64,000 nt of DNA from Candidatus Enterousia sp. Its GTDB lineage: Bacteria; Pseudomonadota; Alphaproteobacteria; Rs-D84. Position 1 is the first letter of the stretch, and each line of letters starts with the position of its first letter. The stretch is taken from the NCBI GenBank assembly GCA_045586565.1, contig JAZNAO010000006.1, forward strand, positions 1,457 through 65,456, given 5' to 3'. Under the pieces are notes generated by a model. The model worked only from the letters and a program-made list of their open reading frames with translations, did no database searches and had not been told where the DNA came from. The translations under genes were made by a program, and so were the position numbers. Positions 4,872-34,358 of the stretch are shown here, piece by piece.

Positions 4872-5603
4872 ATGACACGATATAAAGTAATCTTGGAATA
4901 TGATGGCACAGGCCTGATTGGGTGGCAAGAAAACCGCCATGGGCCGTCTGTGCAATCAATTATGAAAGATGCCATTGAATGTTTTTGTGGTGCGCGCGTT
5001 GATGTTGTGGCGGCGGGACGCACAGATGCCGGTGTGCATGCGGTTGCGATGACGGCGCACTTTGACATTGATGGTGAACATGATGCCGAAACCGTTATGC
5101 GGGCATTAAATTTTTATTTGGTAAATAAACCTGTGGCGGTGTTGGATTGTGAAATTGTGCCTGATGAATTTCATGCGCGATTTGATTGTGTCGCGCGCCA
5201 TTATAAATATGTTGTTTTAAATCGTGGGCCGTCACCGGTACTGCAACAAAATCGTGTTTATTGGGTGCCAAAGAAATTAGATGTTGATGCAATGCGTGCA
5301 GCCGCAGAAAAATTAATCGGCAATCATGATTTTACCAGTTTTCGTGCATCTGAATGCCAGGCGAAATCCCCAATTAAAACATTGGACAGAATAGAAATAA
5401 CCCAAAACGGCGACGAAATTATTTTTGAATTTTCTGCGCGTTCGTTCTTGCATCATATGGTGCGTAATATTGTTGGTACACTGATTGAAATTGGTCATGG
5501 TAAACCATATGATATTGATGAAGTGTTGGCGGCAAAGAATCGTGCGGCGGCGGGCCCAACGGCGCCGGCGTCTGGATTATATTTTATGCGCGCAGAATAT
5601 TAA
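4872..5603 (+). CDS. truA: tRNA pseudouridine(38-40) synthase TruA
   Basis: Catalytic motif AAGRTDAGVHA, with TruA-typical length and layout. Confidence 0.9.
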   Translation: MTRYKVILEYDGTGLIGWQENRHGPSVQSIMKDAIECFCGARVDVVAAGRTDAGVHAVAMTAHFDIDGEHDAETVMRALNFYLVNKPVAVLDCEIVPDEFHARFDCVARHYKYVVLNRGPSPVLQQNRVYWVPKKLDVDAMRAAAEKLIGNHDFTSFRASECQAKSPIKTLDRIEITQNGDEIIFEFSARSFLHHMVRNIVGTLIEIGHGKPYDIDEVLAAKNRAAAGPTAPASGLYFMRAEY

Positions 5604-7546
5604 TGCCATGGCCGATTGGCGGGTGTGTATTTTATACGACCATTTGGGTACATTATAAATCCACCACGCAATATTTTGTGTGCACATTTTTCTGAATCTA
5701 TATTCCAATAAGACACAATATAATCCACACTTTCATCATTGCATAATTTTTGCAGATTATTCATCAGTGGTACGAACTTTTGGATATAAACAATATTGTT
5801 ATATCTGTATACACCGTTGTCGTGTTTGCGACGTGGGTTTGGTGTGTCGATTGCTTCGTTATTTAATTTCTTCCACGTGTTAAACGCAAAGAAATGATTT
5901 GATGCACGTGATTTATTAAATTCCAGTTTCCCATTGTCATCGATAAATCCAACCAGTTCATTATCATGCGTTGTATAAAATATCGGCTTTGGTGTTGTCG
6001 AAACATAAATTGCCCCAGACATGCAAAACACAATACACAAGATAATATTTAATCTGATTTTGTATGGTGTGATTACAATCAAACTAATCAGTCCCAATAT
6101 AAAACACATTATTGCAGCATTTGAAATATGTGGTACGTCAATTACAGACATTGGCAATTGTGCAATCCAATTTGCAATCTGAAATGCCATGTCATAAATT
6201 TGGTGCGCCCAGTTTAATGGGAATAAAATCCCAAACACAGATAACAATGCGCCGATTATAACCAGTGGCATAATTGTCACTGAAAATATAGGCAATAAAA
6301 TTAAATTACCCAGTATGCTGTATGTCGGAATTGTACCAAAATGCATGGCAACAAATGGGGCGGTAAATATCCCGGCCCACACAGATGTTAAAACAGATGC
6401 ATATGTAATCTTTAATATTTTGTTATGTGGCATTTTCGGTTTAACGACGTCATACATCCATACCAATCCAAATACCGCGGCAAAAGATAATTGAAATCCA
6501 GCCTGCATTACATAGTGCGGATTTATCAAAAACATTAATATAAAGACCATTGCAATATTACGCATTGAAATTGCACTGCGTCCGAAAATAAATGCCATAA
6601 ATACCAGTGTTGTCATACAAAACGCGCGAAATGTCGCCGTGTCTGCCCCAGATAAACACATATAAAATAATAATCCCGCCCACGCGCATATTAACGCCGG
6701 GGATTTTGCCGGTATCCGTCGTGTGATGTATGGAATACTGCGGAATATGAAAAAGAACACAACAAATAACCATCCGCCCAGTAATGTCATATGAAATCCA
6801 CTGATTGACCAAATGTGTCCGACACCGGCAGATGTCCAAATTACATCATCCTTTTCTGGAACCATGTTTTTATATCCCAACACCAAACTGTCGACCAAGA
6901 AAGATTCTGATTTGTGGTGAATAAATTCGCGCAGATTTACACTGTTTGCATGATTGATAATTTTCAAATCTGTGACATAACCCGTCGCAGTCAGGTTATT
7001 AAAATATGCATGTCGTGCCCAATCAAATGTTTCTGGCGCAGGCGCCGGTGACATACCGAACAGTCCAACCGTTGCAGATATATTGTCACCGACATTTGGC
7101 ACAATAATATCATCGCCAATTTTAACACGCACGCGTGCCATCCCATTGCCTGCGCGAATATCTGATGCACGTACCGATAAATACAAACGTTTGCCGTCTG
7201 GGGTATAGTCAATTGATTCAACAATCGCATTTATATTATGGTCGTGTAAATCATATTTTAGTTTTGGTGTGTCGACTAAATGTGTATATATGAACGCATA
7301 ACAAAAACCAAAACAGAGCAGGGCAATCCCGCGAATAATATTTGGAATTTTATTCCAGAATATAATTGTAATTAACCCCAGTGTAATTATCGGCAATCCA
7401 ATGATGTATGGTTCGGCCGGCATAGTAAAATATAACGCGGCGCCAAACGCCATTAAAAATGGCACGAACCAAAACAAGTTTTCAGATTGATATTTCCACC
7501 AATTTTTCATATCCAAATTATAGGAATTTATTCTGTTGCCCTGCAA
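5600..7546 (-). CDS. comEC: ComEC/Rec2-family DNA internalisation channel protein (no metallo-beta-lactamase domain visible)
   Basis: Polytopic membrane protein with a soluble insertion between N-terminal TMs (DUF4131-like), followed by a competence-domain-like TM bundle. I saw no HxHxDH motif anywhere in the protein. Confidence 0.75.
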   Translation of the reverse strand: MQGNRINSYNLDMKNWWKYQSENLFWFVPFLMAFGAALYFTMPAEPYIIGLPIITLGLITIIFWNKIPNIIRGIALLCFGFCYAFIYTHLVDTPKLKYDLHDHNINAIVESIDYTPDGKRLYLSVRASDIRAGNGMARVRVKIGDDIIVPNVGDNISATVGLFGMSPAPAPETFDWARHAYFNNLTATGYVTDLKIINHANSVNLREFIHHKSESFLVDSLVLGYKNMVPEKDDVIWTSAGVGHIWSISGFHMTLLGGWLFVVFFFIFRSIPYITRRIPAKSPALICAWAGLLFYMCLSGADTATFRAFCMTTLVFMAFIFGRSAISMRNIAMVFILMFLINPHYVMQAGFQLSFAAVFGLVWMYDVVKPKMPHNKILKITYASVLTSVWAGIFTAPFVAMHFGTIPTYSILGNLILLPIFSVTIMPLVIIGALLSVFGILFPLNWAHQIYDMAFQIANWIAQLPMSVIDVPHISNAAIMCFILGLISLIVITPYKIRLNIILCIVFCMSGAIYVSTTPKPIFYTTHDNELVGFIDDNGKLEFNKSRASNHFFAFNTWKKLNNEAIDTPNPRRKHDNGVYRYNNIVYIQKFVPLMNNLQKLCNDESVDYIVSYWNIDSEKCAHKILRGGFIMYPNGRIKYTPANRPWH

Positions 7547-9916: not shown

Positions 9917-10600
9917 TTATCTGGCGGGACTAAGCCTGATTTCAACCCGTCGATTGGTCAAACGACCGATGTCATCTTGTGCGGCGATGGGGCGTGCCGC
10001 GCCACGACCAACGATAAACATACGTGCCGTACTGATATCGTGTTGTGCCATATATACGCCAACGCGTTTCGCCATATCAATCGATAGCGCATATGCCGCA
10101 TTTGTGTCACGCATTGCATCTGTATATCCTGCGATTTCAATAAAAGTTGCGTCATATTGTTTTAATATTTTTGTAATAATTTTCAATGTATCATCACCTG
10201 TTGATGAAATATCGGCAATATCTAATTCCATAATCGCATCCCGTACCAGTATAACAACCACATCCGTTCCGGCACGTTGCACAGAAATCCCCGGCTTGCG
10301 CAGGGCGTCATACAATGCGTATTCCAGGCTTTTCATATATTGTGTTGCAATGATATTGTCGTTTGTTGTTTTGTCACCATATGATAATGTGTCGTCTGCA
10401 TCAACTGCGTCACCCACCAATTTGCCGCCTGCGCCCAGATATACAGGTCGCTTTGCGACGCGTGACATTTCGGTCATATCCGTCCAACTGGCGCCATTTA
10501 AATATTGTGACCATGTTTGTCTGTCTGGGCTGGTATACGGCATACACCCATTTAGTATGCTAAATAAAGATAATATAAAAATAAATTTTAATTTATTCAT
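9917..10600 (-). CDS. OmpA/Pal-like peptidoglycan-binding lipoprotein
   Basis: Lipobox LSLFSILNGC. C-terminal OmpA-like domain: IEIAGYTD...ALSIDMAKRV...RRVEIRL. The start abuts the stop of the pilin gene. Confidence 0.7.
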   Translation of the reverse strand: MNKLKFIFILSLFSILNGCMPYTSPDRQTWSQYLNGASWTDMTEMSRVAKRPVYLGAGGKLVGDAVDADDTLSYGDKTTNDNIIATQYMKSLEYALYDALRKPGISVQRAGTDVVVILVRDAIMELDIADISSTGDDTLKIITKILKQYDATFIEIAGYTDAMRDTNAAYALSIDMAKRVGVYMAQHDISTARMFIVGRGAARPIAAQDDIGRLTNRRVEIRLSPAR

Positions 10601-11059
10601 TTATTCAACAATAAACGATATTTGGTTTGTATCAGATTCAAAACAGTTTTCTGCATATCCTGTTTCAAAGCCGTTTACCAGCATTTTTGTTGCCCACTGT
10701 GGTTTCATGGTTGAAAAATAATCACATTCACCTGTTGTTAAATCAACCAAGTTGATGGAAAATGTCGCGCCATCTGTACTGGATGTTATGGACCATCCTT
10801 CGCCACCAATTGGGGCGCGATCTGATTGTAATGCGCCCGCCTTGATAAGATAGTCCACAGACACACCTGTATAATCATCGCGCATTTCCAATAACAATTT
10901 TGTGTTTGCTGCGATTTGTTCCAATTCTGCATTTGCGATTGTTCGCTTTTGATTTTCGCGCATTATGCGAAACATTCCAAATGCCGCCACTGTCATCAGA
11001 CCAGTAATCGCCATAACACCGATAACTTCAATCAAAGACCGTCCAGATTGTTGTTTCAT
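10601..11059 (-). CDS. Type IV pilin / pseudopilin-like protein (152 aa)
   Basis: Class-III signal peptide pattern MKQQSG|RSLIEVIGVMAITGL with Glu at +5. C-terminal Cys pair (GEC...ENC). The start overlaps the dnaX stop (TAATG). Confidence 0.65.
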   Translation of the reverse strand: MKQQSGRSLIEVIGVMAITGLMTVAAFGMFRIMRENQKRTIANAELEQIAANTKLLLEMRDDYTGVSVDYLIKAGALQSDRAPIGGEGWSITSSTDGATFSINLVDLTTGECDYFSTMKPQWATKMLVNGFETGYAENCFESDTNQISFIVE

Positions 11060-12627
11060 TATTTTACTCCTACGATTTCTGCGTTTTCAAACAGGCTCAT
11101 TGCGCTGGCGACCAATGGGTCTGCAACCAATTCTTCTTGTTTTTGTTCAGACATTGTATGTGTATGAACATTTTCACTGGCGCGAACCATCTCCCATGCA
11201 TGTCCTGTCTTGTCCATCAGCCATGTGGCCAATTTATGCACAAAATCCCCGTCACCTTTGCGGTCAAAGTATGTGATTTTACCATCGGTAAATTCAGACA
11301 CTTCGATATTACTGCTATAATAAGAATATAATAAAATTTCCTTGGATTTTTGTAATTCTTCCCCCAGTTGTGTTGCAGACGTAATTGTTACAAATGTTGT
11401 TTGTGGTATACACGGTTGTGTTTCTGACGGTTTAGACATACGGTCTGCCAAAATATTTTTTACGTCACGCACACGATTTGCAGATTCTTGCTGTTTAATC
11501 AATTCTGGGATTGATGGCATATCTGCAATATGCATCATACGAATAATCAGCATATCAAAACATTGTTTTTGATTGCCCGCAGCCTGCATTTCTGGGACGG
11601 CGGCAACCATAACCTGCCATATACGCGACAATGTGTTCACAGATACGCGTGAATTTATCATATGAATCTGGTCGCGTTGGTCGGTGGTGTATGGTGAATT
11701 TACAGCATCGCCTGCGTGTAATGCCGGATGCATACGCGTTGCCCAGTGTGTCCATTCCATCATGTCCGTCAACAACATCATTAAATCGGCGCCGTTATTA
11801 TAAATCTCGTCTACCTTGTTTAATGCGGCTGCTGTGTCACCAGATAACAAAGTCTTCATCAAATCAACCACAACACCACGGTCGGCACGTTTAAGCATAT
11901 CTAATACAGCTACTTCATCAACGTGTCCCCCGGTTTGGGCAATTGCCTGGTCCAGCAAAGATAAACCATCGCGCACAGAACCATCTGCCGCGCGTGCCAA
12001 TAATTCGTTTGCGCCATCAGTCAGTTCAACATTTTCCTGGTCTGCAATCCATGCAAAATGTTTTTTTAATGTTTCGACCGGCACACGCACCAAATCAAAA
12101 CGTTGGCAACGAGATAAAATCGTCACGGGAACTTTTCGGATTTCTGTGGTTGCCAAAATGAATATTACATGTGCGGGTGGTTCTTCTAATGTTTTCAACA
12201 GTGCGTTAAACGCAGATGTCGACAGCATATGAACTTCGTCAATAATATAAACTTTATATCGTCCGTTTGTTGGTCTGTATTGTGCCGCATCCAGAATGTC
12301 ACGCATATTATCCACACCTGTATGTGATGCAGCGTCGATTTCCATAACGTCAATATGTTGTCCGGCGGCAATTGCGCGACAGTTTTCGCATGTTCCACAT
12401 GGTGTTGCGGTTGCCCGGTCTGATGATTGGCAATTCAATGCCTTGGCCAAGATACGCGCTGTGCTTGTTTTTCCAGTTCCGCGAATTCCTGTGAAAATAT
12501 ATGCGTGCGCAATACGTGACGTGTTGATTGCAGTGGTCAATGTTTTTACCAAAACATCCTGGCCAATCAGTGTTTTAAAATCTTGACTGCGATATTTACG
12601 TGCCAAAACGGTATAATTGTTTTCCAT
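11059..12627 (-). CDS. dnaX: DNA polymerase III subunit gamma/tau
   Basis: Walker A GTGKTSTARI, zinc module C-x8-CGTCENC, Walker B YIIDEVHMLS, and SRCQRF. Confidence 0.92.
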   Translation of the reverse strand: MENNYTVLARKYRSQDFKTLIGQDVLVKTLTTAINTSRIAHAYIFTGIRGTGKTSTARILAKALNCQSSDRATATPCGTCENCRAIAAGQHIDVMEIDAASHTGVDNMRDILDAAQYRPTNGRYKVYIIDEVHMLSTSAFNALLKTLEEPPAHVIFILATTEIRKVPVTILSRCQRFDLVRVPVETLKKHFAWIADQENVELTDGANELLARAADGSVRDGLSLLDQAIAQTGGHVDEVAVLDMLKRADRGVVVDLMKTLLSGDTAAALNKVDEIYNNGADLMMLLTDMMEWTHWATRMHPALHAGDAVNSPYTTDQRDQIHMINSRVSVNTLSRIWQVMVAAVPEMQAAGNQKQCFDMLIIRMMHIADMPSIPELIKQQESANRVRDVKNILADRMSKPSETQPCIPQTTFVTITSATQLGEELQKSKEILLYSYYSSNIEVSEFTDGKITYFDRKGDGDFVHKLATWLMDKTGHAWEMVRASENVHTHTMSEQKQEELVADPLVASAMSLFENAEIVGVK

Positions 12628-12675
12628 ACTGAAACTTCCTTTGGGTTTAGCATAGCAAACCAGTGTAAAATTTCA

Positions 12676-12702
12676 ACAAATAAAACGCGCCAATGGCGCG
12701 CT
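12676..12702 (-). terminator. Intrinsic terminator after the DUF4167 gene
   Basis: CGCGCC-AAT-GGCGCG hairpin. A T-rich run follows on the minus strand. Confidence 0.6.
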
Positions 12703-12709
12703 TATAATA

Positions 12710-13018
12710 TTATTTTAGGTTTGTAATAAAATCTGGCAATTCGCTGTCTTCATCATCAGGATTTTCTGGTGCGTCTCCGGCGGATTCTGGTGCTGGTTCT
12801 GCAACTGTCTTATCCTTTGGGTCGCGTGTTGAATCTATTTTACCCTGTTCTGCATTGACAATACGACCATAGTGTTCTGCCGCCTGTAATAAACGTTCGC
12901 GTTCAATTTCATCAGATGTTTGACGCGCTTGGTCTATATATTGTTTTCTTTTCTGACGCCATTTATGACAGCGTTGAATCATCTGTCCGACATTGGATTG
13001 ATTTTTTTTATTTTGCAT
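12710..13018 (-). CDS. DUF4167-like protein
   Basis: Basic N-terminus, then YIDQAR...ERLLQAAEHYGRI, which resembles the alphaproteobacterial DUF4167 signature (...QHAEHYFR), then an acidic tail. Confidence 0.55.
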   Translation of the reverse strand: MQNKKNQSNVGQMIQRCHKWRQKRKQYIDQARQTSDEIERERLLQAAEHYGRIVNAEQGKIDSTRDPKDKTVAEPAPESAGDAPENPDDEDSELPDFITNLK

Positions 13019-13121
13019 ATTTTTTTCTTTTTAATCAGGAAATAATCTTTTATAACGAATCCGAATAAACATCGTCTTCGTCACAGTTAACGTTTCAAAT
13101 ATTAAAGTATCTTAAAACCGA

Positions 13122-13150
13122 TTGCAATAATTTTTTTATGTTGCTACACT
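13122..13150 (+). promoter_or_regulatory. Putative promoter of the large pilin-like operon
   Basis: TTGCAA, a 17-nt spacer, then TACACT, about 25 nt upstream of the AGGAGG RBS. Confidence 0.35.
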
Positions 13151-13173
13151 GAACGTGTAGGAGGGGGCACGTC

Positions 13174-14532
13174 TTGCAACAACAACGCGGTAATTTTTTA
13201 ATGCAGGCTCTGTTGGCATTGGGGGTAATTTTTGCATTTATGCCATTTATTACACGCCAATTGGCGGGGCGCGATACCGATGCGCGTATGTATTCTTCAA
13301 CGCGCCAGGTTGATATTGCGCAAAGTGCCGCCCAGATTTTTATTCGTGAAAATGCGAATAATTTACCATATGAAACAACGGTTATATCGGGAAATGATTT
13401 TGCTGATTTATTGGAACCGTATGGCCTGCCATTGGGTTTTGTGCCACGCACGGCCCTGGGCCAGAATATTGCGTTGGTAATCAATAAAACGCCAGTATCT
13501 GTATCTGCGTATCTGGAATTGTCTGGTGGTAATTTATCCGCGTTGGATATTGCAGAGTTGGCGCGTCGTATTGGATTTTATGCGATGGTCACAGATGATG
13601 GTGTAAATGTTGGTATTGAATTGTCGGATGTTTATTCTGATATTGTGCGTCGTAATGAACCGAATTTGGAAAACAGTGGTTTTTTAACCGATTTAGATAT
13701 GGGTGGTTTCGTATTTAATAATGCCGGCAATTTATTCGCTGTGCGTGGCACATTTGATAGTGCTCAATTTAACAGTATGACTGTAAATGGACTGGAATCG
13801 GGGCGCAAGGCAAAAAATACAATTGGCACCATGATTGCAGACAAGGCTGTGTTTCAAAACAAGTCTGGCGAATCAGCGCTAACTTTGACACGTGGGACAT
13901 TGTATGCAAATACTGTAAATGGTCGCACGTTATCTTTGTTTGGTGATACGGGAAATCTGGCTGTGAATGATGCGTCGGCATATGAGTTGGCGATGACTGC
14001 GGGTCGAACGTCTTTTTCGGGGCCTGAAAAATGGAATGTTCGCGGGAATTTGGTATCAGATCACATCAATTTTAGTGTTGAACGATTAGATGTGTCGTCG
14101 TATATCAGTGCAACACGCGGTCAAGATGTATTTATTGATTATGATACATTGGATTACAGCACTAAATCTGGAATCGAAGTCGGAACAATATACACATCAA
14201 ATATCACTGTGCGTGATCAGACGTCCAGTGCATTAAACGATGGTATGTCTGGGGCGGTTATTTTAGATGTGCGCCCAGGCGGCACAACACTGTTGCCGGA
14301 TGCGTTGGTTGGTGATATCAACAACGACGAATTTGCAATTATATCTGATGTGTTATCAGATGACGATGCAACGATTGCGTGTAAAAAAATAATAGATGAT
14401 TTCGAAGGTGTGTATAACAAGCAGTCTTTATCGCAATATTTAATATGTCAATATGTATATTGGCAACGTCTGGAAAAGCGCATCAATATCAAACAATGTT
14501 TAATGGCGGGTGGCAGTGACTGTGTTAAATAA
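13174..14532 (+). CDS. Large pilin-like protein 1 (452 aa; Gln instead of Glu at +5)
   Basis: TTG start behind a strong RBS (AGGAGGGGG). N-terminus MQQQRG|NFLMQALLALGVIFAFMPFITRQ. Paralogous to the next two ORFs (shared ...IG...DDG..YG and LDMGG motifs). Confidence 0.55.
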   Translation: MQQQRGNFLMQALLALGVIFAFMPFITRQLAGRDTDARMYSSTRQVDIAQSAAQIFIRENANNLPYETTVISGNDFADLLEPYGLPLGFVPRTALGQNIALVINKTPVSVSAYLELSGGNLSALDIAELARRIGFYAMVTDDGVNVGIELSDVYSDIVRRNEPNLENSGFLTDLDMGGFVFNNAGNLFAVRGTFDSAQFNSMTVNGLESGRKAKNTIGTMIADKAVFQNKSGESALTLTRGTLYANTVNGRTLSLFGDTGNLAVNDASAYELAMTAGRTSFSGPEKWNVRGNLVSDHINFSVERLDVSSYISATRGQDVFIDYDTLDYSTKSGIEVGTIYTSNITVRDQTSSALNDGMSGAVILDVRPGGTTLLPDALVGDINNDEFAIISDVLSDDDATIACKKIIDDFEGVYNKQSLSQYLICQYVYWQRLEKRINIKQCLMAGGSDCVK

Positions 14533-15751
14533 CAAGATATTTTCAGATAATTGTCATGGTGCCAGTGTTCTGGAAGTGTTGCTGGCAATGGCGATTGTTG
14601 CCATGGCGACACCTTTTGTATATCGGCAAATTGCCCAAACAAATCATACGATTCATGATATTGCAATTGCGCGCAAGATTATGTCGACGCGTGAATCCGC
14701 ACTAAACTTTATCAGAATAAATCAAGATAAATGGCCTGATAATGCCCAGATTAAATTAGATGATTCTGAATTGGATATTATATCAACAGATGCAGCAGCG
14801 GGCTTTATTGATAAATATTCTGTAAACGGCGCAGTTATAACAGATGTATATTTGGCATTTGTTACAGCAGATACAGGATTGCGGACAAATCAAATTGCCC
14901 GTCATATTGGTTCTGATGCGGCGGTGGTCAGCGATGATGGTGTTGCGTATGGTAATACTTGGGCGGTTGCAGCGCCTGATTTTATTCCTGGTGATTTAAT
15001 ATATCGTATATCGCGTGACATTGCGGGCACAGATACATCAATATATCTGCATCGTGGAACATCTGGTGATGATGGTTTAAATATTATGCAACGTGATTTA
15101 GATATGTCGAATCATCACGTTTATAATGTTGCGACTTTGAATGGAAAATCTGTTCGTGCACGAAATGCAAATACTGTGTTTGTCGACACAACAGATGTTG
15201 TTACCAACAGTGTATATTTTTCATCGGGTGCGAATTTAGAGAATGATTCATCTGTATTTGGTAATGTTCGTGTAACTGGTGATATATCTGGGTTTCGTAA
15301 TATTTATGCAGATAATTTAAACGGTCGTGGATATACGACCACAGGGCGCATTGTAACAGACCGCGCCACGATTATAGATACTATAAATGTTGCGAATGAC
15401 TTTGTGTTAAAATCTGATTCTACACGCACGGTCAGCGCATTTACAGGTATTTCGGCCAGTTCTGTTTTGACACCATACATATCTGCCGAAGAGATGATAT
15501 TTTATGATAATTTTGGATTGACTGTATCTGGTGAATTGCTGATGTCAACCTCAACACCATTAAAGTTGGGCAGTTGGTCATTCCCATCAACAAAGCCGCC
15601 TGTGTTTAAGTCTTTTAATGTGTCACGGGCAACACGTCCGTCAATGCCGTCGCGTAATGAATTTGATGCAGTAACCCGTCGTGGGTGGCAGTCAACAGAT
15701 ACACTAACCCCACCGGTCTTTCAACAAACATATATATCAACGATAAATTAA
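14510..15751 (+). CDS. Large pilin-like protein 2 (413 aa)
   Basis: GTG start region overlaps the upstream gene. N-terminus ...CHG|ASVLEVLLAMAIVAMATPFVYRQ with Glu at +5. Contains YLHRG...DLDMSNHHVYN. The exact start is uncertain. Confidence 0.55.
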   Translation: MAVTVLNNKIFSDNCHGASVLEVLLAMAIVAMATPFVYRQIAQTNHTIHDIAIARKIMSTRESALNFIRINQDKWPDNAQIKLDDSELDIISTDAAAGFIDKYSVNGAVITDVYLAFVTADTGLRTNQIARHIGSDAAVVSDDGVAYGNTWAVAAPDFIPGDLIYRISRDIAGTDTSIYLHRGTSGDDGLNIMQRDLDMSNHHVYNVATLNGKSVRARNANTVFVDTTDVVTNSVYFSSGANLENDSSVFGNVRVTGDISGFRNIYADNLNGRGYTTTGRIVTDRATIIDTINVANDFVLKSDSTRTVSAFTGISASSVLTPYISAEEMIFYDNFGLTVSGELLMSTSTPLKLGSWSFPSTKPPVFKSFNVSRATRPSMPSRNEFDAVTRRGWQSTDTLTPPVFQQTYISTIN

Positions 15752-15752
15752 A

Positions 15753-17069
15753 ATGACAAAACGATACGGAATTTTTTCAAAATACAATCAATCGCGTGGC
15801 GGCATGTTGATTGAATTACTGCTTAGTGTGGCATTGGCATCTGTGATAATACCATTCATTTTCCAGTATCAACAGAACGCGGTAACGCGTGCGCAAAATA
15901 TTGCGATTACAGAACAAATGTCGGATATTCAATCTGCATTGGAAAGATATATAATTGCCAATCGCGAAGATTTATTAAAAACTGTGGGTCGCACTATTAC
16001 GCGCATATCTATGTCTGATTTGGTGCCATATGGTGTCCCAGATTCTGTATTGACCGCCGGCGATGAATTGTTTCAACTGCGCATCTTAAAATCGTCAGAT
16101 TATGGTGACCAGTCTACATTACAGGGAATCGTTGTGCGAAACTCAGAAGATATATCCCCATTGCGAACACGTGAAATTGTGAATCTGTCTGGGGGCAGTA
16201 TGGGTTTTATTGATGACACTCATGCGTATGGTACATTTGGTACATGGCATACAGATACAGTTGACATGGGCATTGATATGGATAACGCGATTATTGAAAC
16301 GACACCTGTGAATCGTGACAACGCGTTGTATTTGTGGCGCATACCATCTGATGATGCGTCAGACTCGCGCATGATGACGGCGTTAAACCTGGGTGGGCAT
16401 GATATATTAAATTCATCGTTTGTAAATGCGAATCATATTGAATTTTCAGAAATGTTGTCTGCACCTGCGATTGCGACGGGCGATATTATCTTTCAAAACA
16501 GAACAACGATAGATTGGCCATTGGATGCATCCAACGCCAGTGTCGCGGGTATGTTATCTTCGGATGCCAAGAATATGGAAATAACCAATTCTTTGACGAT
16601 TGGTGACGTTGCAAAATTATCATCGTTGACGGCATCAAATTTATGGGTTGGCAATTTAACGTTGGGTGGTTTATCTTTGCACGGTGATGTAGAAGTCGCG
16701 ACCTTGGCCATAAATCAGACACTGGATATGACTGCCGGTCGTATCGAAGCAATGTTTGTATCTGTTGGTTTTGCAGGTTCTATGACGCCGCGTCTGGTTG
16801 TTTACGACAGAATCGAAGATTCAACGAATTCTGGATACTATTGGGATTTGAAATCAGAAATGGCAAGCTTTGCGGACGCAACGTTGGTTGAATTAAATCG
16901 TATGGCAACCTTGGCGTCATATTACGAAGGTGATGCGTCGACTGAATCTGGCCAGATTTTTGGTGCGGTATCTGCGAATAAAAATGCGACTGTATCTGAT
17001 TACATGAACGCGATAAATGAAATTCAAACGCGTGTTCGTGCCAAATATCGTCAGTTGAATTTGCAATAA
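15753..17069 (+). CDS. Large pilin-like protein 3 (438 aa)
   Basis: N-terminus ...SRG|GMLIELLLSVALASVIIPFIFQYQ with Glu at +5. Contains YLWR...LNLGGHDILN. Starts 1 nt after the upstream stop. Confidence 0.55.
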   Translation: MTKRYGIFSKYNQSRGGMLIELLLSVALASVIIPFIFQYQQNAVTRAQNIAITEQMSDIQSALERYIIANREDLLKTVGRTITRISMSDLVPYGVPDSVLTAGDELFQLRILKSSDYGDQSTLQGIVVRNSEDISPLRTREIVNLSGGSMGFIDDTHAYGTFGTWHTDTVDMGIDMDNAIIETTPVNRDNALYLWRIPSDDASDSRMMTALNLGGHDILNSSFVNANHIEFSEMLSAPAIATGDIIFQNRTTIDWPLDASNASVAGMLSSDAKNMEITNSLTIGDVAKLSSLTASNLWVGNLTLGGLSLHGDVEVATLAINQTLDMTAGRIEAMFVSVGFAGSMTPRLVVYDRIEDSTNSGYYWDLKSEMASFADATLVELNRMATLASYYEGDASTESGQIFGAVSANKNATVSDYMNAINEIQTRVRAKYRQLNLQ

Positions 17070-17089
17070 AATGTGGTATAAGTAATAAC

Positions 17090-17617
17090 ATGAAAATAAA
17101 ATGTGAATTTTGTAAAACAGAATATAATATAGACAGACCGCCATTGACGCCGGTTAAATGTGCGTTGTGTGGGTATACGTGGCGCGTTGCGGCACCGGCG
17201 CGCAAGAACGTATGGTTGATGTTTTTTGCGTCTGTCTGTGCATTATTGTCTGCGATAATTTTTTCTATTGCGGTTATTGCTCATCACCAGGCTATTCATG
17301 CGAACCGTGGTCCATTGATTGCATCTGTGTCTGGGGTTGAAACCGCGACTGATGATACTGGTGTTTCGCATGTAATTGTCAGTGGTTCTGTGACAAATGT
17401 ATCGGATGCGATATATGGTGTGCCTGACTTGATAATTGTTGCGACGGACGATAATGGGAATGTTTTATCGCGCCAGAAATTTATGCCATCGGCCACATTA
17501 CTTGATTCTGGGGCGGTTGTGAATTTTAAACACACACTGGCGCCATTGCCGTCTGGCGTGACTAAGATATCCGCACATTTGGGCGAAATGGAAATACCAT
17601 CGGGGGAAGAACAATGA
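17090..17617 (+). CDS. MJ0042-type zinc-ribbon protein with TM helix and DUF3426-like C-terminal domain
   Basis: CEFC-x15-CALC zinc ribbon at the N-terminus, one TM helix, and a beta-rich C-terminal domain, as in the zinc-ribbon/DUF3426 family. Confidence 0.55.
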   Translation: MKIKCEFCKTEYNIDRPPLTPVKCALCGYTWRVAAPARKNVWLMFFASVCALLSAIIFSIAVIAHHQAIHANRGPLIASVSGVETATDDTGVSHVIVSGSVTNVSDAIYGVPDLIIVATDDNGNVLSRQKFMPSATLLDSGAVVNFKHTLAPLPSGVTKISAHLGEMEIPSGEEQ

Positions 17618-18072
17618 AAAAATTTATATTTGCATTGATTGGTTTGGCTTTATCTGCACCGTCATTTGCGGCAGACACGCCTGCGCCCGCGCGCATCAGT
17701 ATTTTTTCCACCAGCACTGATTGGCAGGCAGTTACTGGTCTGCGTCTGAACGAATATAATGGCACGTTTATTCCAGACAAGAAATTGGTTGGTCGTGGTC
17801 TGGTTTTGTATTACCTGGATGGGTTTCCGTGTTATGGGTTGGGGTATGGTGTTCGCGCGTGGGTTGGCCCAGACTTTAATCATGAACATTTGCATATTGC
17901 GTGTGTTGCGGCACCCACAGAAATTAAGTTTGCATACCGCAACGCCACCCGTGATGCAGACCAGGCGACAACCACAGGAATTTTGACATGTCCGGTTGAA
18001 GGCGACGGTCGTGAATTGACAATCCGTTTGTCTGATTGTACGGTTGGCCCTGATTGGGATGAATACAGATAA
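17614..18072 (+). CDS. Secreted hypothetical protein (152 aa)
   Basis: Signal peptide MKKFIFALIGLALSAPSFA|AD, four Cys, and a 4-nt overlap with the upstream gene. Confidence 0.45.
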   Translation: MKKFIFALIGLALSAPSFAADTPAPARISIFSTSTDWQAVTGLRLNEYNGTFIPDKKLVGRGLVLYYLDGFPCYGLGYGVRAWVGPDFNHEHLHIACVAAPTEIKFAYRNATRDADQATTTGILTCPVEGDGRELTIRLSDCTVGPDWDEYR

Positions 18073-18083
18073 GGGTTTTATGC

Positions 18084-19043
18084 ATGGCGGACACACGTAC
18101 ATTTACTGTCTTAGATACTGATGAACTGACACGCGTTGATAAATATTTATCATCACAAATGCCTGAATTTTCACGCAGCGAGATTCAGCGTTTCACTGTC
18201 ACGCGTGGTGATGGTGCGCCTGTAAAGTTTTCCGAAAAAGTTCGTGTTGGGGATTGTTTTACTGTTGAAATTCCAGCGCCCCAGACAGACGTTGCAACAG
18301 ATAACATATCGTCAGACTTTGATCTGGACATATTGTTCGAAGACGATGATATAATCGTTATAAACAAACCGCGTGGTGTGGTTATGTACCCGTCTGCGGG
18401 CAACAAGACCGGAACATTGGTTCAAAATATCTTGGCGCACACGCATTTATCTGCGCTGGGCGGGGCAACGCGCCCGGGTGTGGTTCATCGTCTGGATAAA
18501 GATACCAGTGGCGTGATGGTCTTTGCGAAATCAGACGCGGCATTTCGTGGCTTGGTAAAAATATTTTCCGCGCATGATTTGACACGTAAATACATTGCCT
18601 TTACATGGAACATCCCAAATTGGGAGGTTGCCGACATCACCGGCAATATCGCGCGTTCATCACGTAATCGCCAAAAGATGACAATGGTAAAATCGGGCGG
18701 AAAATCATCTCATACCGAAGTGGCGGTTGTAAACGCGTGGCCACGTGCGAACGTGTCGCAAATGCGTTGCACACTGTTTACCGGCCGAACACACCAGATA
18801 CGCGTTCACCTGTCATCGCATGGTTTCCCGGTGTTATGTGACCCGTTGTACGGTCGTGGCGCGTCACGTCTGGGGACGGTGCGCGATGCGGATTTGTTGG
18901 ATTTTCTGCGTTCTCATGACGGTCAAATGTTGCACGCCGAAGTGCTGGAATTTACTCATCCCATAACTGGCGCGGCGATGCGTTTTAAATCCCGCCTGCC
19001 TGATGATATGATGGAATTAAAATATATCCTGGAAAATATATAA
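18084..19043 (+). CDS. rluD: 23S rRNA pseudouridine synthase, RluA/RluD family
   Basis: S4-like N-terminus and catalytic motif HRLDKDTSGVMVFAKS. Confidence 0.85.
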   Translation: MADTRTFTVLDTDELTRVDKYLSSQMPEFSRSEIQRFTVTRGDGAPVKFSEKVRVGDCFTVEIPAPQTDVATDNISSDFDLDILFEDDDIIVINKPRGVVMYPSAGNKTGTLVQNILAHTHLSALGGATRPGVVHRLDKDTSGVMVFAKSDAAFRGLVKIFSAHDLTRKYIAFTWNIPNWEVADITGNIARSSRNRQKMTMVKSGGKSSHTEVAVVNAWPRANVSQMRCTLFTGRTHQIRVHLSSHGFPVLCDPLYGRGASRLGTVRDADLLDFLRSHDGQMLHAEVLEFTHPITGAAMRFKSRLPDDMMELKYILENI

Positions 19044-19117
19044 CATTTTCCCCATTTTTCCCTTTTCAAAGTGCTTTGTTTGTGTTAAAATAAAGTAACT
19101 AATAATGGAGTAAGGGG

Positions 19118-22100
19118 ATGTCATTTCTCAAAAATACAGTAAGTTTATTGGCGGTTTTCTGCGTTGTTCCGGCGGCTTTTGGTGCCACGGCGCGCCCCAG
19201 TGTTTTAAACACTGCGACGGCGGTTTCGGCAACTGGTGCGGTTCGTCGTGTGGCGATGCCAACGATGACATCGTATATCACTGGCTCGGCGGGTGGTGTT
19301 ACAAACAACAATAATGGCAACTCTGGTTCCAGCAACTTATTAGACAGCATTGAATGCATCGATGCATACACCGAATGTATCAAATCCGAAGATGTGTGCG
19401 GCGAAGATTTGTCAGAATGCACAACAAACGTATTGTTCCATGGCAAAATGCCCCAGTGTGTAAGCACCCTGGCCCAATGTGAACCGGATGGGGTTGATGC
19501 ATTATTTGGCACAAAGAATGTAACCGATTTGTCGTTCTATGATTCAAATAATTCTGCGGAATATGATGCCGAAGATGGTGAGGTTATTCGTTACACATAC
19601 CCAACAGACGGCAGTGTTCTGGGGCAAATGATTATATCTGCGGCGATTGAAAATCAGTATGATACACAAACATGCGTGAAACGTTATATGTCATGCTTGA
19701 ATAAAGACAGTGTTTGTGGTGCAGACTTTGAATTATGTACCGACGAACGTGAATTTAAAAAGCAGGCATTGTTCTGTGATTCAACCCTGGCCCGTTGCCA
19801 GGCAGACGGTGTTCGCGAATTATTCGGGGTTTCAAAATGGTCGCCACATAAAATGGGTGCGGATGGCAAAATCGAAGGTTCTTCCCGTGTTGGTGTGGCA
19901 ATCAAAGACGGTGCAGATTTGGCGGCGTTGAACGCGGTTTCTACCTGTTACAAGGTTGTTGAACAGTGTTTCTTGGGCGCATGTTCGGCCAATCCGTTGC
20001 GTTGTTTGGCGGGGTCGAATTTATCGACATTGACGGCGGCAAATGATATTGCGGCGGACGGTATCACAATCACATTGTCAAATGACAGTGCGCCATCAAC
20101 CCCAACAGACGTAAATCGTTATCTGCGCACATCGTGCCAGGATACAATTGGTGCAAATAAATTCTGTCACATGACATTCTTGGGCAAAAATCCAAGTAAG
20201 AAAGACTTGGCGGATGTAGATGTCCAATCAGAAGTCTTTGACGATGCAATCAGCGAACGTAAAAAATACGTTGAATCAAAAATCCAAGATTTGATGACAC
20301 AGTTCGATAAACGTGCCAAGGATAAATGTGTTGAAACAATTCGTTCATGCGCAATGCGTTCCTGTGGCGAAGGTGTCGGTTCTGTATGTTATTCATCTGT
20401 ATATGGCGCGAATGGCGGAAATACAATTGCGGGTCCGGCCACACGTCCAGATATCAAAACGGCATGTGAATCTGTTGTAAATACCGATGTGAATTGCCAA
20501 TATGCATATTCAACTGTTATAGATAATGGTGTGTATTCATACAATTACATCCAAAATTCTGTATTTGATACATTATTCCCAGAATATGCTGCCGACAAAA
20601 CAAACAATGATCCAATCGGTGTAATCGGGTCGTTAAATTCGTCCCTGTCGACCAGTTATAATGCCGCTGCTCTGGCGCAAATGAAGAAGCAATGTCAATC
20701 TGTCGCGACCAGCTGTGTTAAATCAATGTGTGGCACGGATTACCAGAATTGCTATCGCAATCGAACAGATATCTTGTCTGATTTGACCAATACGGATAAT
20801 GCAAAGTTTGATACGTCAATGAACAAGGTTGGTGGTGTTCTGGATTATACAATTGTATTGGGATTGTGCATGAACACGGTTAAAAACGCCGATGTATGTG
20901 ATGAACACCTGAAAATCCAAAAGGCCAAATTAGATTTGGAAAAGACAACGGAAAATGTATGGGGAACACAATCGTCTGTCCGTGATGGCTGGATTGATGC
21001 TGGTGGTGCCAAGAAGTTTGAAGAAGGGATGGTTCATTCCAAAGACGAAAATGGTGCCGATTTATGCACAAATGCTGCAGGGGACCAAGGTGTTTGCTAT
21101 GACGTTGATGCCAATGGTGATGTTTTTAATAAACCTGTGATGATATCTGCAGACCTGTATAAAACGAACCAGGCCACAACATCATTATTCCGTGAATTGT
21201 TGGTTGATTTAGAATACGAAGCCCAGGCGAAGTATAACGCCAAATTGACGAAACAACAGAATATGTGTCTGGCGGCAAATTCTGGTGGTGTTGTTGGCGC
21301 TGGCGATATGGGTTCAACATTCATGTGGGCAAAATTGAAAAGGGGCAAGGTTCCGGCCGATTATTCAATGAATGGTTTAACCAGTGACCAAATTGTCCCA
21401 AGTAATGAATTGTATGGTTCATTCTGCCGTGTGCGTGTGACACTGCAATCCACAGACCCAACCGTATCTGAATGGTTAAACAGTACCGAAGGTCAGAAAT
21501 ATGCAACGCGTTATTTTGCGGCGGGTGATGCATTTACATGCGGTTCATGGATACCTGTTGGCGATGAAGGAACATGCCATGACGATACCGCCGCGGGCAT
21601 CAGAAGATGCAAAGGTGGCTCAGGATTACGTGGCCTGGCGCAAAAGGTTGGCGAAGCCACATATACATACGACAAACAGAAATCCGACACAATTCTGCAA
21701 ACAATGTTGCCAGTGGTTGGATTGCTGGGTGGTGGTATTGGTGGTGCATATCTGGGCGCCGGCATCGAAGACGGTTCTGTATTCGGCGGTCTGACGGGTA
21801 AAAAGAGCACAAAATCAGACAGCAAGACAGCAAAGACTGCAAACGATAGATGTTCGAATGCCATCGATATGGCCAAAACAAAATTAGCGGAAGCAAATCC
21901 TAGCCTGGAAAGTGTAAGAAGTTTAGCCAAAACAGCGGCTGATGAATTAGAAGACATGGACAAGGTTGTGTACAAAAACCTGGAGTATTGGCCAGATGGT
22001 ATGACAACTACTGTTACTGAAACTATTTCTAAAGGAGAAGGGGAGCAAACTAAATATTATTGTGGCGGGACAGAAGTCAATACGAAAGTACCAGCACGGT

Positions 22101-22432
22101 GCGTTGGTGATAAGTTATTGGCCGATGCAAGAACAGAAATCACACCCATTTTGAATAGACTAGAAGGTTATTGTGAATCTGCGGTCGAAGACGAAGATGC
22201 CAATGCTAAAAAGAAAAAGGGTGCCGCCGCCGCGGGGGCTGTGACAACCGGTGTGATCAGCAGTGTTCTGACATGGGGCGTCACACGCAGCATCATTGAT
22301 GCACAACGCACCAAAGAACAACAGGCCGCAATTGATGAATTCATGGATTCATTGGGTTCAAAAATCAATTGTGTTGTCGGTGGGGATTCCATTGCGGTAT
22401 ATGGCGACACATTGGTCACCAGTATGGAATAA
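19118..22432 (+). CDS. Large Cys-rich secreted/membrane-anchored protein (1104 aa), unknown family
   Basis: RBS GGAG..AAGGGG and signal peptide ...VVPAAFG|A. Contains duplicated Cys modules, a Gly-rich hydrophobic segment (LPVVGLLGGGIGGAYLGAGI) and a second C-terminal hydrophobic segment. Followed by a strong terminator. Confidence 0.7.
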   Translation: MSFLKNTVSLLAVFCVVPAAFGATARPSVLNTATAVSATGAVRRVAMPTMTSYITGSAGGVTNNNNGNSGSSNLLDSIECIDAYTECIKSEDVCGEDLSECTTNVLFHGKMPQCVSTLAQCEPDGVDALFGTKNVTDLSFYDSNNSAEYDAEDGEVIRYTYPTDGSVLGQMIISAAIENQYDTQTCVKRYMSCLNKDSVCGADFELCTDEREFKKQALFCDSTLARCQADGVRELFGVSKWSPHKMGADGKIEGSSRVGVAIKDGADLAALNAVSTCYKVVEQCFLGACSANPLRCLAGSNLSTLTAANDIAADGITITLSNDSAPSTPTDVNRYLRTSCQDTIGANKFCHMTFLGKNPSKKDLADVDVQSEVFDDAISERKKYVESKIQDLMTQFDKRAKDKCVETIRSCAMRSCGEGVGSVCYSSVYGANGGNTIAGPATRPDIKTACESVVNTDVNCQYAYSTVIDNGVYSYNYIQNSVFDTLFPEYAADKTNNDPIGVIGSLNSSLSTSYNAAALAQMKKQCQSVATSCVKSMCGTDYQNCYRNRTDILSDLTNTDNAKFDTSMNKVGGVLDYTIVLGLCMNTVKNADVCDEHLKIQKAKLDLEKTTENVWGTQSSVRDGWIDAGGAKKFEEGMVHSKDENGADLCTNAAGDQGVCYDVDANGDVFNKPVMISADLYKTNQATTSLFRELLVDLEYEAQAKYNAKLTKQQNMCLAANSGGVVGAGDMGSTFMWAKLKRGKVPADYSMNGLTSDQIVPSNELYGSFCRVRVTLQSTDPTVSEWLNSTEGQKYATRYFAAGDAFTCGSWIPVGDEGTCHDDTAAGIRRCKGGSGLRGLAQKVGEATYTYDKQKSDTILQTMLPVVGLLGGGIGGAYLGAGIEDGSVFGGLTGKKSTKSDSKTAKTANDRCSNAIDMAKTKLAEANPSLESVRSLAKTAADELEDMDKVVYKNLEYWPDGMTTTVTETISKGEGEQTKYYCGGTEVNTKVPARCVGDKLLADARTEITPILNRLEGYCESAVEDEDANAKKKKGAAAAGAVTTGVISSVLTWGVTRSIIDAQRTKEQQAAIDEFMDSLGSKINCVVGGDSIAVYGDTLVTSME

Positions 22433-25591: not shown

Positions 25592-25617
25592 AAAAACGGC
25601 ATGACGCCGTTTTTTTA
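25590..25617. terminator. Bidirectional terminator between uvrD and the VirB6-like operon
   Basis: A-run, then ACGGC-ATGAC-GCCGT hairpin, then T-run. Confidence 0.65.
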
Positions 25618-26910
25618 TTTGCGTGATTCTTTGATAATTTTATACCATTCTTTGACAGACTTTTTTGCATCGCCCCATAATCTGGTCACGTCTGATTTTA
25701 ATGATGTGCCCATTGAAGAATCTATTGCGCCACCTATGTCTGTTGCAATTTGTGATGCATGACTGGCCAGATACCATGTCAACGCCATCACAAACATAGA
25801 TGTCCATATATTTGGATTATCAAATTCTGGCACCAACCCAGGATTTGTTAAATCCATAACGCCCGATAATAATGCTGTGCAAATTGCAATAACAATTGAC
25901 AATGTGACAAAGTGCAGGGCTGCATTGATAAAACGCATAATTTGTGCCTGTAAAGATTCTGTGGAAAATAACTTTACAAAACCATTATAAATATCACCAA
26001 CAATTCCCTTGTATGATGTTTGGCCCACGCACTCTGCAATTGCAGTAAAAGGCAACATTATAATCCCCAAGAATAAATCTGCAATTACACCAAATGCAAC
26101 AAATGCAAATTTCCATGCCAGATATATAAACCCACCAATCATTGCGCCACCACACAGGAATGAAAACATACTGCGTCCGATACCGTATGCCATCCATTTC
26201 CATCCAACCGCCACCGCCGTATAACAAAATCCGGATAATCGTGTTGGAATACACATAATGTTTGCTGCGGCTTCTGGGGGCAATAAATTAGATTCAGATA
26301 TATGTTCTGTGGCATACATATGAATCGCTGTGCATGTGTCTGGGATTTGTGCGCCTGCAACACTGGCTACTGCATTTAAAATTAAATCAGATATCAGTGA
26401 TGCAACGCTTAAAATTGGACTCATCACCATCATAAATGTTTCTGCCGGTCCGACATTTAACACCACCACCCACATTGCGGTTATTGCGCCTTTTTTCAGC
26501 ATTGATTTTATTGTGTCTTTAGTGTCGGCTTTGCCGGTGATTATATTATATGCCTCTAACCCCATCCAGAATGCATACATCAATATGATAAATATGATTG
26601 TAAACCGAACCAATGACGAATCCAGTATATGCCCGATATGTGAAAACGCATTCATAAATGCCAGACCGATTTTCGCTTCTATTGGGACAAACCCCACATC
26701 AAAATTTTGTATTGTATTTCCGTGAAATTTTTCAAAATCCCCAGACAGTTGCCCTATAAACAATTCTCGGTTTGCTTCCGTGGTCCATACCCCATTATCA
26801 CCGATATCTGGTAACGGTACATTTGTTTCGCCAAATGCCGGCACCGCCATAACCGTTGCGATTGCAACAAGTGCTAAATACCTACAAAGATGTTTAAATA
26901 CCTTTATCAT
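25615..26910 (-). CDS. TrbL/VirB6-like polytopic membrane protein, paralogue 4 (431 aa)
   Basis: Signal peptide and multiple TMs. The layout (hydrophobic helix - charged loop - helix ...) is shared with the four neighbours and resembles VirB6. 4-nt overlap with the upstream gene. Confidence 0.5.
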   Translation of the reverse strand: MIKVFKHLCRYLALVAIATVMAVPAFGETNVPLPDIGDNGVWTTEANRELFIGQLSGDFEKFHGNTIQNFDVGFVPIEAKIGLAFMNAFSHIGHILDSSLVRFTIIFIILMYAFWMGLEAYNIITGKADTKDTIKSMLKKGAITAMWVVVLNVGPAETFMMVMSPILSVASLISDLILNAVASVAGAQIPDTCTAIHMYATEHISESNLLPPEAAANIMCIPTRLSGFCYTAVAVGWKWMAYGIGRSMFSFLCGGAMIGGFIYLAWKFAFVAFGVIADLFLGIIMLPFTAIAECVGQTSYKGIVGDIYNGFVKLFSTESLQAQIMRFINAALHFVTLSIVIAICTALLSGVMDLTNPGLVPEFDNPNIWTSMFVMALTWYLASHASQIATDIGGAIDSSMGTSLKSDVTRLWGDAKKSVKEWYKIIKESRK

Positions 26911-30801: not shown

Positions 30802-30869
30802 TCTCTCTTTTTATTTTTATCTTTTCAATTATATCACATTTAATGCAAAATATGGTATACTTAAAAACA

Positions 30870-34090: not shown

Positions 34091-34358
34091 ACATTTGTCG
34101 GTGGGATTTTTCACCGATGGGGTGTGGAAACCCGTTATCTAAGCGTCTATGCACGATTGCATAACGCGCCAATGGCGTGTTTTTTGTGCAGTGTATGGAT
34201 GAAAATTTTTTTCTCCTGATCTTATGTGGTCAGGAGGGCTGCGAATATATTGAATAAGCACACAATTCTTAGATATTGTTTCCAACCTCCTGGCCACCTA
34301 TCTTTTATGGTGGTTTTTGTTTAATTTGCGTATGCAGAACGAAAGGGAGGAAAGTAAT
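34091..34358 (+). promoter_or_regulatory. Conserved structured leader (attenuator-like), copy A
   Basis: Hairpins at 34098-34117 and 34120-34133, and hairpin plus T-run at 34164-34185. Alternative segments: S1 34213-34221, S2 34226-34238, S3 34286-34298, S4 plus T5 34309-34318. Conserved in copies B and C. Confidence 0.6.

Follow-up and report, generated by a model that had tools for sequence, protein, structure and literature searches.

A chromosomal triad of PilV-like proteins in Candidatus Enterousia, probable minor pilins of a type IVb-like pilus

We analysed a stretch of 64,000 nucleotides from Candidatus Enterousia sp. (assembly GCA_045586565.1, contig JAZNAO010000006.1, positions 1,457 to 65,456 of the forward strand), here referred to as the window, in which three consecutive genes, A, B and C, encode a triad of paralogous proteins with prepilin-type N-termini. 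A, B and C probably belong to the PilV family and serve as minor pilins of a type IVb-like pilus encoded on the chromosome. The triad is not categorically new; it was previously unannotated. Its three open reading frames (ORFs) are as follows.

13174-14532, plus strand: gene A, a PilV-like minor pilin paralogue; ORF of 452 amino acids with a TTG start.
14510-15751, plus strand: gene B, a PilV-like minor pilin paralogue; ORF of 413 amino acids with a GTG start.
15753-17069, plus strand: gene C, the PilV orthologue-like member; ORF of 438 amino acids.

The genes are as tightly packed as the initial annotation, made from the DNA alone, had described: the overlap between A and B is 17-23 nt, and a single nucleotide separates B from C. 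In relatives and in the NCBI version, gene B begins two codons further downstream, at 14516, and this start, yielding 411 amino acids, is probably the true one. The N-termini quoted in the initial annotation for A, B and C were exact upon re-reading of the sequence, and so were the positions of a motif common to the three proteins (LDMGGFVFNN at 13693-13722, LDMSNHHVYN at 15098-15127 and LNLGGHDILN at 16383-16412). The shared (R)xI(G)...DDG.xYG blocks were likewise found, at 13564-13614 in A, 14900-14953 in B and 16170-16232 in C. A scan of the locus for promoters and terminators returned nothing above shuffle expectation.

The homologues of B and C were all named 'hypothetical protein' and came from metagenome-assembled genomes of Alphaproteobacteria from animal guts. 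Scanning species-representative genomes with a profile built on the B alignment detected B relatives in 196 DNA stretches, 80 of which, mostly labelled Candidatus Enterousia, were compared; the conservation counts given below refer to 74-80 species. The triad locus is chromosomal, lies between dnaX and rluD, and has a synteny that is fixed in about 80 species. Across the 80 loci, gene order was near-invariant, with genes for OmpH, an OmpA-family lipoprotein, a 152-residue pilin, dnaX and a 102-residue protein on one strand, and A, B, C, a zinc-ribbon protein, a 152-residue secreted protein, rluD and a Cys-rich protein of about 1100 residues on the opposite strand. Candidatus Enterousia belongs to the order Rs-D84 (GTDB) and has genomes of about 0.75-1.0 Mb without the tricarboxylic acid cycle, respiration and part of glycolysis, for which a partner-dependent lifestyle has been proposed; type IV pilus genes were reported in that study only for another lineage (PMC12306168).

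All three proteins start with a short basic leader that ends in Gly and is followed by about 20 hydrophobic residues, the layout of a class III signal. B (...CHG↓ASVLE) and C (...SRG↓GMLIE), as well as the 152-residue pilin described below, have the Glu at position +5 that completes this signal, whereas A, with a leader of 6 residues (MQQQRG↓N), has Gln at +5. These positions were almost without exception: G6, Q11 (+5) and P24 of A were present in 77 of 77 species, G16, E21 and P34 of C in 79 of 79, while in B we counted G17 in 79 of 79, E22 in 79 of 80 and P35 in 80 of 80 species. The residue at -1 was Gly in every A, B, C and 152-residue pilin sequence compared. The conserved Pro is located about 18 residues into the helix, where it would introduce a kink. 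Judged from these alignments, the signal-like motif of A, B and C is far beyond chance. The invariance of Gly-1, Glu+5 (Gln+5 in A) and Pro fits purifying selection on a substrate of prepilin peptidase that is also a filament subunit, and would be unexpected for a plain membrane anchor. In lacking Glu5 throughout the family, A resembles GspK-type pseudopilins; no T2SSK match was obtained for A in Pfam or NCBIfam, and A is related to the PilV-like families of B and C.

Pairwise BLASTP comparisons among A, B and C detected only 24-31% identity over the N-terminal 85-230 residues. Comparison of family profiles gave E = 1.5e-26 over 252 columns for B versus C and E = 4.2e-16 over 190 columns for A versus C, and the paralogy of the three proteins is therefore firm. 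None of them scored above cut-off in scans of the curated Pfam, NCBIfam and PHROGs collections, the only hint being a weak GspI match at the N-terminus of B. Some relatives of C (72% identity), however, scored 27.0 bits on the Pfam family Shufflon_N (PF04917), for which the cut-off is 27.5 bits, and a distant C-type relative that bears the name PilV at NCBI scored 31.7 bits. As a reference we used the PilV protein from a pil operon on a Citrobacter plasmid, which has 437 residues and scores 248.7 bits on Shufflon_N. Alignment of the C-family profile with this plasmid PilV (hhalign) gave a probability of 98.45% and E = 4.2e-15 over residues 27-233 of C, with DYLYRKSVPGHPELNTMSTALNMGGNDV in PilV opposite LYLWRIPSDDASDSRMMTALNLGGHDIL in C; the motif of the PilV constant region, YL(W/Y/H)R...M..L(N/D)(L/M), was present in A, B and C. 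The profiles of A and B matched plasmid PilV weakly, at E = 1.2e-4 and E = 8.6e-4, respectively.

The relationship was also detectable without profiles. When plasmid PilV was used as a tblastn query, it matched the window at 15828-16487 (24.7% identity over 239 amino acids, E = 1.8e-7) as well as 84 C genes across the related loci. Conversely, C alone as a query against 7.3 Gb matched 237 plasmid records, with E values down to 5e-6, and the records listed were annotated pilV. As these comparisons indicate, the similarity of C to the Shufflon_N constant region is one of homology that lies outside the boundary of the curated family; the homology to PilV is real, while membership in the curated PilV family and system is partial only. 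The initial annotation had called the proteins unusually large, which does not hold in view of the 437 residues of plasmid PilV.

Structure prediction was in line with these results. In AlphaFold models of B and C, the N-terminal domain was confidently predicted as pilin-like, with a 55-60-residue helix lying against a sheet and predicted local distance difference test (pLDDT) values of 70-87; in the B model, the pilin-like helix and sheet comprised residues 20-170 (pLDDT 74-87). The models accordingly display a long N-terminal helix on an antiparallel beta sheet. In each of A, B and C, the N-terminal ~170 residues are a pilin-fold domain. A search of PDB sequences with the family profiles matched only pilin N-termini for C and gave noise for B. 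A Foldseek comparison of the complete B model with the PDB gave no useful information, because 60% of this model is of low confidence; its sole pseudopilin hint was XcpI (probability 0.72).

The alignable part among the three families is restricted to the first 190-260 residues, and the C-terminal parts of A, B and C therefore appear to differ. Gene A encodes a C-terminal domain with four conserved Cys residues (403, 425, 442 and 450), B has conserved C-terminal blocks of its own, and C consists of the pilin domain, a predicted beta-helical middle and a predicted C-terminal helical bundle. A repeat search over 12600-19100 revealed no inverted-repeat family, no recombinase and no shufflon.

The following genes accompany the triad in the window.

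9917-10600, minus strand: OmpA-family peptidoglycan-binding lipoprotein (Pfam OmpA, E = 3.8e-11; NCBIfam YiaD-like, E = 6e-26).
10601-11059, minus strand: 152-amino-acid type IV pilin, candidate major subunit (MKQQSG↓RSLIE; two invariant Cys).
17090-17617, plus strand: ZitP-like bitopic protein with an N-terminal zinc ribbon, a transmembrane helix and a periplasmic DUF3426/FxLYD-like domain.
17614-18072, plus strand: 152-amino-acid secreted protein, no family found, with a signal-peptide-like N-terminus; its gene overlaps the ZitP-like gene by 4 nt.
18084-19043, plus strand: rluD, directly 3' of the secreted-protein gene.

The 152-residue pilin gene is located 2 kb from the triad, between dnaX and the gene for the OmpA-like lipoprotein. 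G6 and E11 of this pilin were conserved in 74 of 74 species, and C112 and C139 were invariant. Its matches to Pfam N_methyl (E = 0.0015) and PilS_N (E = 0.0047) were both below cut-off. The dnaX, pilin and OmpA-lipoprotein genes abut (9917-12627, minus strand), the dnaX stop and the pilin start sharing position 11059 and the pilin stop and the OmpA start lying at 10600/10601; this is an odd operon arrangement for a replication gene. The OmpA-lipoprotein gene was found beside the pilin gene in nearly all related loci that extend that far, and its product may anchor the pilus apparatus in the envelope.

On the other side, 20 nt separate C from the zinc-ribbon gene, and 11 nt separate the gene for the secreted protein from rluD. 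The zinc-ribbon gene was found directly 3' of C in almost all Enterousia loci that reach past C, and also in two distant loci (L090 and L091); the gene for the 152-residue secreted protein always accompanied the cluster. Caulobacter ZitP has the same architecture as the zinc-ribbon protein, and its periplasmic DUF3426 domain is needed for biogenesis of the Tad (type IVc) pilus (PMC5182063). Since the Pfam matches of the Enterousia protein were all below cut-off (Zn_ribbon_4, E = 2.8e-5; DUF3426, E = 0.032; FxLYD, E = 2.5e-4), we infer rather than assert this link. ZitP organises the cell pole in Caulobacter; here, the ZitP-like gene is joined to a PilV-type triad, which represents a different branch of type IV filaments.

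In agreement with the initial annotation, neither reading of the ORFs nor tblastn with plasmid pil proteins revealed an ATPase, platform protein, secretin or prepilin peptidase in the window. Clustering of the neighbours in the 80 related loci revealed no further pilus genes, and assembly machinery was found only through tblastn with the plasmid pil proteins, which located an ATPase and a platform protein in two Enterousia loci (L029 and L033). Specifically, a PilQ-like ATPase and a GspF/PilR-like platform protein are encoded directly beside the OmpH-OmpA-pilin-dnaX block, the T2SSE ATPase being 30% identical to plasmid PilQ over 418 amino acids (E = 2.5e-46). This operon has the order tetratricopeptide repeat protein, PAP_PilO (PF06864), a 230-residue protein, T2SSE and T2SSF, which equals the pilO-P-Q-R order of IncI plasmids, with virD4 a few genes away. 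The Enterousia ATPase was found in at least 120 clusters with 87-100% identity, all of them with PF00437. For several of these clusters the longest contig had the same length as a contig carrying the triad (197,423, 315,805, 134,839, 215,682 and 178,856 bp), which suggests that ATPase and triad share a contig in these clusters. The refuting condition named in the initial annotation, a genome devoid of type IV machinery, is therefore answered in the negative at the level of the genus, through the PilO/ATPase/platform operon of congeners. In the window and related loci, tblastn with a plasmid prepilin peptidase, PilM, the PilN secretin, PilP, TcpQ and a lytic transglycosylase detected none of these.

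Triads of tandem paralogues were also encountered in other lineages. A mouse-gut bacterium encodes three such proteins of 444, 461 and 487 residues, a 'Rickettsiales bacterium' genome three of 479, 422 and 439 residues, and another distant lineage three of 423, 409 and 498 residues; in a further lineage, three paralogues (at least 243, 427 and 518 residues) are encoded beside recO. A giant triad of 1236, 1083 and 1188 residues is present on metagenome contig k141_660222 (L007, 3551-14143), where all three genes were matched by plasmid PilV in tblastn with E values of about 1e-12 to 5e-16. A protein with zinc ribbon, transmembrane helix and DUF3426-like domain and a protein of about 155 residues are encoded directly before rluD in two distant lineages as well as in Enterousia. 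In the mouse-gut bacterium the genes for the zinc-ribbon and ~155-residue proteins follow four genes further on, and the flanks of the other two lineages differ.

The closest known counterparts of A, B and C are the minor pilins and tip adhesins named PilV (PF04917) of the thin pili of IncI1 and IncI2 plasmids (R64, TP114), of Salmonella Typhi pathogenicity island SPI-7 and of the island PAPI-1. Like the triad proteins, PilV starts with a class III signal, its length is comparable (437 amino acids), and its constant region of about 200 residues, including the YLxR...M..L.MGG..I motif, is homologous to C. The PilV systems also share with Enterousia the pilO-P-Q-R order, a small pilin, to which the Enterousia pilin shows weak PilS similarity, and a nearby VirD4. 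In contrast to plasmid PilV, which is a single shufflon-switched gene on a mobile element, the triad consists of three fixed paralogues without sfx repeats or Rci that are chromosomal core genes of a reduced-genome lineage, and their C-terminal parts are as conserved as their N-terminal parts. Member A has Gln instead of Glu5, most members of the triad families remain below the Pfam cut-off, and the Enterousia pilin genes are located apart from the machinery operon, whereas pilV follows the major pilin gene in the plasmid pil operon.

A second group for comparison comprises TcpB of the Vibrio cholerae toxin-coregulated pilus (TCP) and CofB of the enterotoxigenic Escherichia coli pilus CFA/III. 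These large type IVb minor pilins are present in low abundance; they trimerise at the pilus tip and start filament assembly. As in the triad, a pilin domain is followed by beta-rich domains, and the major pilins of TCP and CFA/III are structural matches to the N-terminal domain of C. However, sequence comparison with solved chains, among them TcpB and CofB, matched the triad at pilin N-termini only, and the TcpB and CofB trimers are homotrimers of one gene product (PMC9045228 for CofB) while Enterousia has three distinct genes. A third group, GspI-GspJ-GspK of type II secretion systems and FimU-PilV-PilW-PilX of type IVa pili, resembles the triad in that several minor pilins prime the filament and in that GspK lacks Glu5, as A does with its Gln5. 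No T2SSK or GspI/J match above cut-off was obtained for the triad, and its members all have 410-450 residues and PilV-type domains. Finally, the tapirins, beta-helix adhesins of the type IV pilus locus in Caldicellulosiruptor, are separate secreted proteins and not pilin fusions, and the match to them comes from a model region with pLDDT values of 50-67.

Taking these comparisons together, the chromosomal, shufflon-free triad of PilV-like minor pilins probably forms the tip of a pilus. Conceivably, the prepilins would be cut after the conserved Gly and drawn from the inner membrane by the platform protein and the ATPase. A, B and C would then combine at a 1:1:1 ratio to prime assembly, and their complex would come to lie at the filament tip, while the 152-residue pilin would polymerise beneath it, driven by the PilQ-like ATPase and the PilR-like platform. 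In type II secretion systems, GspI-J-K form a heterotrimeric tip in which the top subunit, GspK, has no Glu5. By analogy, A would be placed on top of the complex as a cap, because it alone is without Glu5 and can dispense with a salt bridge to an overlying subunit. The arrangement would likewise resemble the trimers of CofB and TcpB. Facing outward, the beta-helical and C-terminal domains would serve to bind a conserved ligand of the partner cell, three fixed genes taking the place of the switchable C-termini of plasmid PilV. The proposal of a 1:1:1 tip complex follows from the constant number of three genes, the strict occurrence of Gln5 in A only and the uniform conservation of the three proteins.

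Several observations weigh against identifying the triad with minor pilins of a PilV-type adhesive pilus. Firstly, mean pairwise identity is about 60% along the full length of A, B and C, B having two less conserved stretches of which the second comprises the last ~50 residues. This uniform conservation contrasts with the variable C-termini of plasmid PilV, and the triad is therefore unlikely to act as an adhesin whose specificity changes; A, B and C may serve only to build or prime the filament. Secondly, the C-terminal two-thirds of both AlphaFold models were of low or middling confidence. The region after the pilin domain is provisionally modelled as beta-helical and resembling known adhesins, provisionally because the pLDDT there is just 50-67. 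Thirdly, C from the window had no Pfam match by itself, and just 2 of 24 members of the C family matched Shufflon_N in hmmscan. Fourthly, similarity of the 152-residue pilin to plasmid PilS was weak (E = 0.003-0.03), with a full-length alignment in which the Cys residues were aligned. Furthermore, the PilO/ATPase/platform operon was seen in congeners, outside the window's own assembly, and tblastn across the window and about 1.8 Mb of related loci detected neither prepilin peptidase nor secretin. The core idea of the initial annotation is supported: these are large, beta-rich proteins anchored by a pilin domain, minor subunits or adhesins in a type IV filament, and C is homologous to the tip adhesin PilV. 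The heterotrimer with A as cap goes further by inference only, and we regard it as roughly half as likely as the PilV-family identity itself.

Four other explanations were considered. According to the first, the pilus assists a type IV secretion system (T4SS), as in IncI plasmids, by holding the target cell for VirB/VirD4 transfer of DNA or effectors, and the triad is a domesticated remnant of a conjugative element. The gene for VirD4, the T4SS coupling protein, directly adjoins the dnaX-pilin-OmpA block in several relatives (L001-L003 and L092), and in several Enterousia genomes it adjoins either this block or the PilO-ATPase operon. Plasmid pil operons encoding PilV sit among T4SS genes, and the plasmid PilV pili stabilise mating pairs for the T4SS (PMC9045228). 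On the other hand, the triad belongs to the core genome, with conserved synteny and housekeeping genes on its flanks in about 80 species; the neighbourhood contains neither a relaxase nor a shufflon or recombinase, and the T4SS is linked to the pilus by proximity only. We consider this account possible but unlikely; it refines the PilV-type pilus and is not an exclusive rival to it.

The second explanation invokes a short pseudopilus that spans the periplasm and takes up DNA or acts in secretion. It would be composed of the four pilin-like proteins, with A, B and C in a priming role, and would pass DNA to ComEC as a nucleotide source for the reduced genome. DNA uptake in Gram-negative bacteria usually needs a type IV filament, and the window encodes both ComEC (PF03772, E = 9e-53; 5600-7546, minus strand) and a ComFC-like protein (48727-49449, plus strand). 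The lack of a secretin in the window and related loci would suit such a pseudopilus, and the uniform conservation of the triad fits a structural role. However, the 250-300 extra residues per subunit, with their adhesin-like predicted fold, would make for a bulky periplasmic pseudopilus, ComEC and ComFC occur widely and show no synteny with the triad, and the closest relatives, the PilV proteins, belong to extended adhesive pili (PMC9045228). We judge this explanation improbable. The ComFC-like protein is a double-zinc-ribbon phosphoribosyltransferase, and the retention of ComEC and ComFC in a genome of less than 1 Mb hints at DNA uptake.

Thirdly, the N-terminal segment could be a signal anchor only, which would leave A, B and C as periplasmic or surface proteins tethered to the inner membrane, never processed or polymerised. 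The lack of a prepilin peptidase in the window and related loci and the failure of the window's A, B and C to pass the cut-off of any curated pilin hidden Markov model speak for this view, which is nevertheless very unlikely given the invariance of Gly-1, +5 and Pro over about 80 species, the PilV homology, the pilin fold of the modelled N-terminal domain and the dedicated ATPase and platform of the genus. The last idea, that the proteins stem from phage tail fibres as a prophage remnant or a tailocin-like module fused to a membrane anchor, goes back to a tail-fibre motif cited in the initial annotation and hardly merits belief, since this motif turned out to be the signature of the PilV constant region, aligned residue for residue, and no phage genes are nearby. 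A phage tail-fibre or tailspike identity was rejected in three tests: PHROGs gave no tail-fibre family match for A, B or C, tblastn with C against 50,697 phage records (2.3 Gb) gave one match at E = 5, and a viral fold library gave no match at E <= 0.001, with template modelling scores of at most 0.17.

Further gene families were noted in the window. A family of secreted Cys-rich proteins, none of which belongs to a known family, is encoded at 19118-22432, 34317-35102, 53535-55040 and 55291-56376. The N-terminal stretch AAGYTCEELIEYT.CN.G.YLNDGDCI is nearly the same in two members and recurs in related form in a third; the member of 1104 residues is without this stretch, and in most species its gene terminates the synteny block of the pilin triad. 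Adjacent paralogues of about 247 residues with alike N-termini (...CG....K.ARKRVRV.L...) are encoded at 61719-62465 and 62469-63212. Five tandem, look-alike polytopic membrane proteins of 396-486 residues occupy 25615-32159, four on the minus strand (25615-30801) and one on the plus strand (about 30699-32159). When these were checked as possible hidden machinery, the five had no Pfam match, and the one compared with PDB sequences had no match there; we presume that they resemble the VirB6-like T4SS arrays of Rickettsiales in layout only.

Rs-D84, including Enterousia, is a widespread uncultured gut lineage for which no mechanism of cell contact is known (PMC12306168). Our findings suggest that the Enterousia lineage uses a PilV-type pilus to hold a partner cell, and such binding matters for a genome of less than 1 Mb without respiration. 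In these small genomes the triad, the 152-residue pilin and the PilO/ATPase/platform operon all belong to the core and show strong conservation, so that a type IV pilus is likely to be a key organelle of the lineage. A bolder and doubtful extension is that Rs-D84 fixed a type IVb pilus of the conjugative-plasmid type in its chromosome, and that an obligate heterotrimeric PilV tip with A as cap, which took the place of the shufflon adhesin, docks, perhaps together with the neighbouring T4SS, onto the specific partner cell from which the bacterium feeds. If true, this would give the Alphaproteobacteria an equivalent of the episymbiosis by which Patescibacteria depend on pili. The link to PilV offers targets for antibodies and fluorescence in situ hybridization, and the conserved C-terminal domains can be used to hunt for ligands. 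Lastly, three specialised PilV paralogues may show how the tips of type IVb pili are built.

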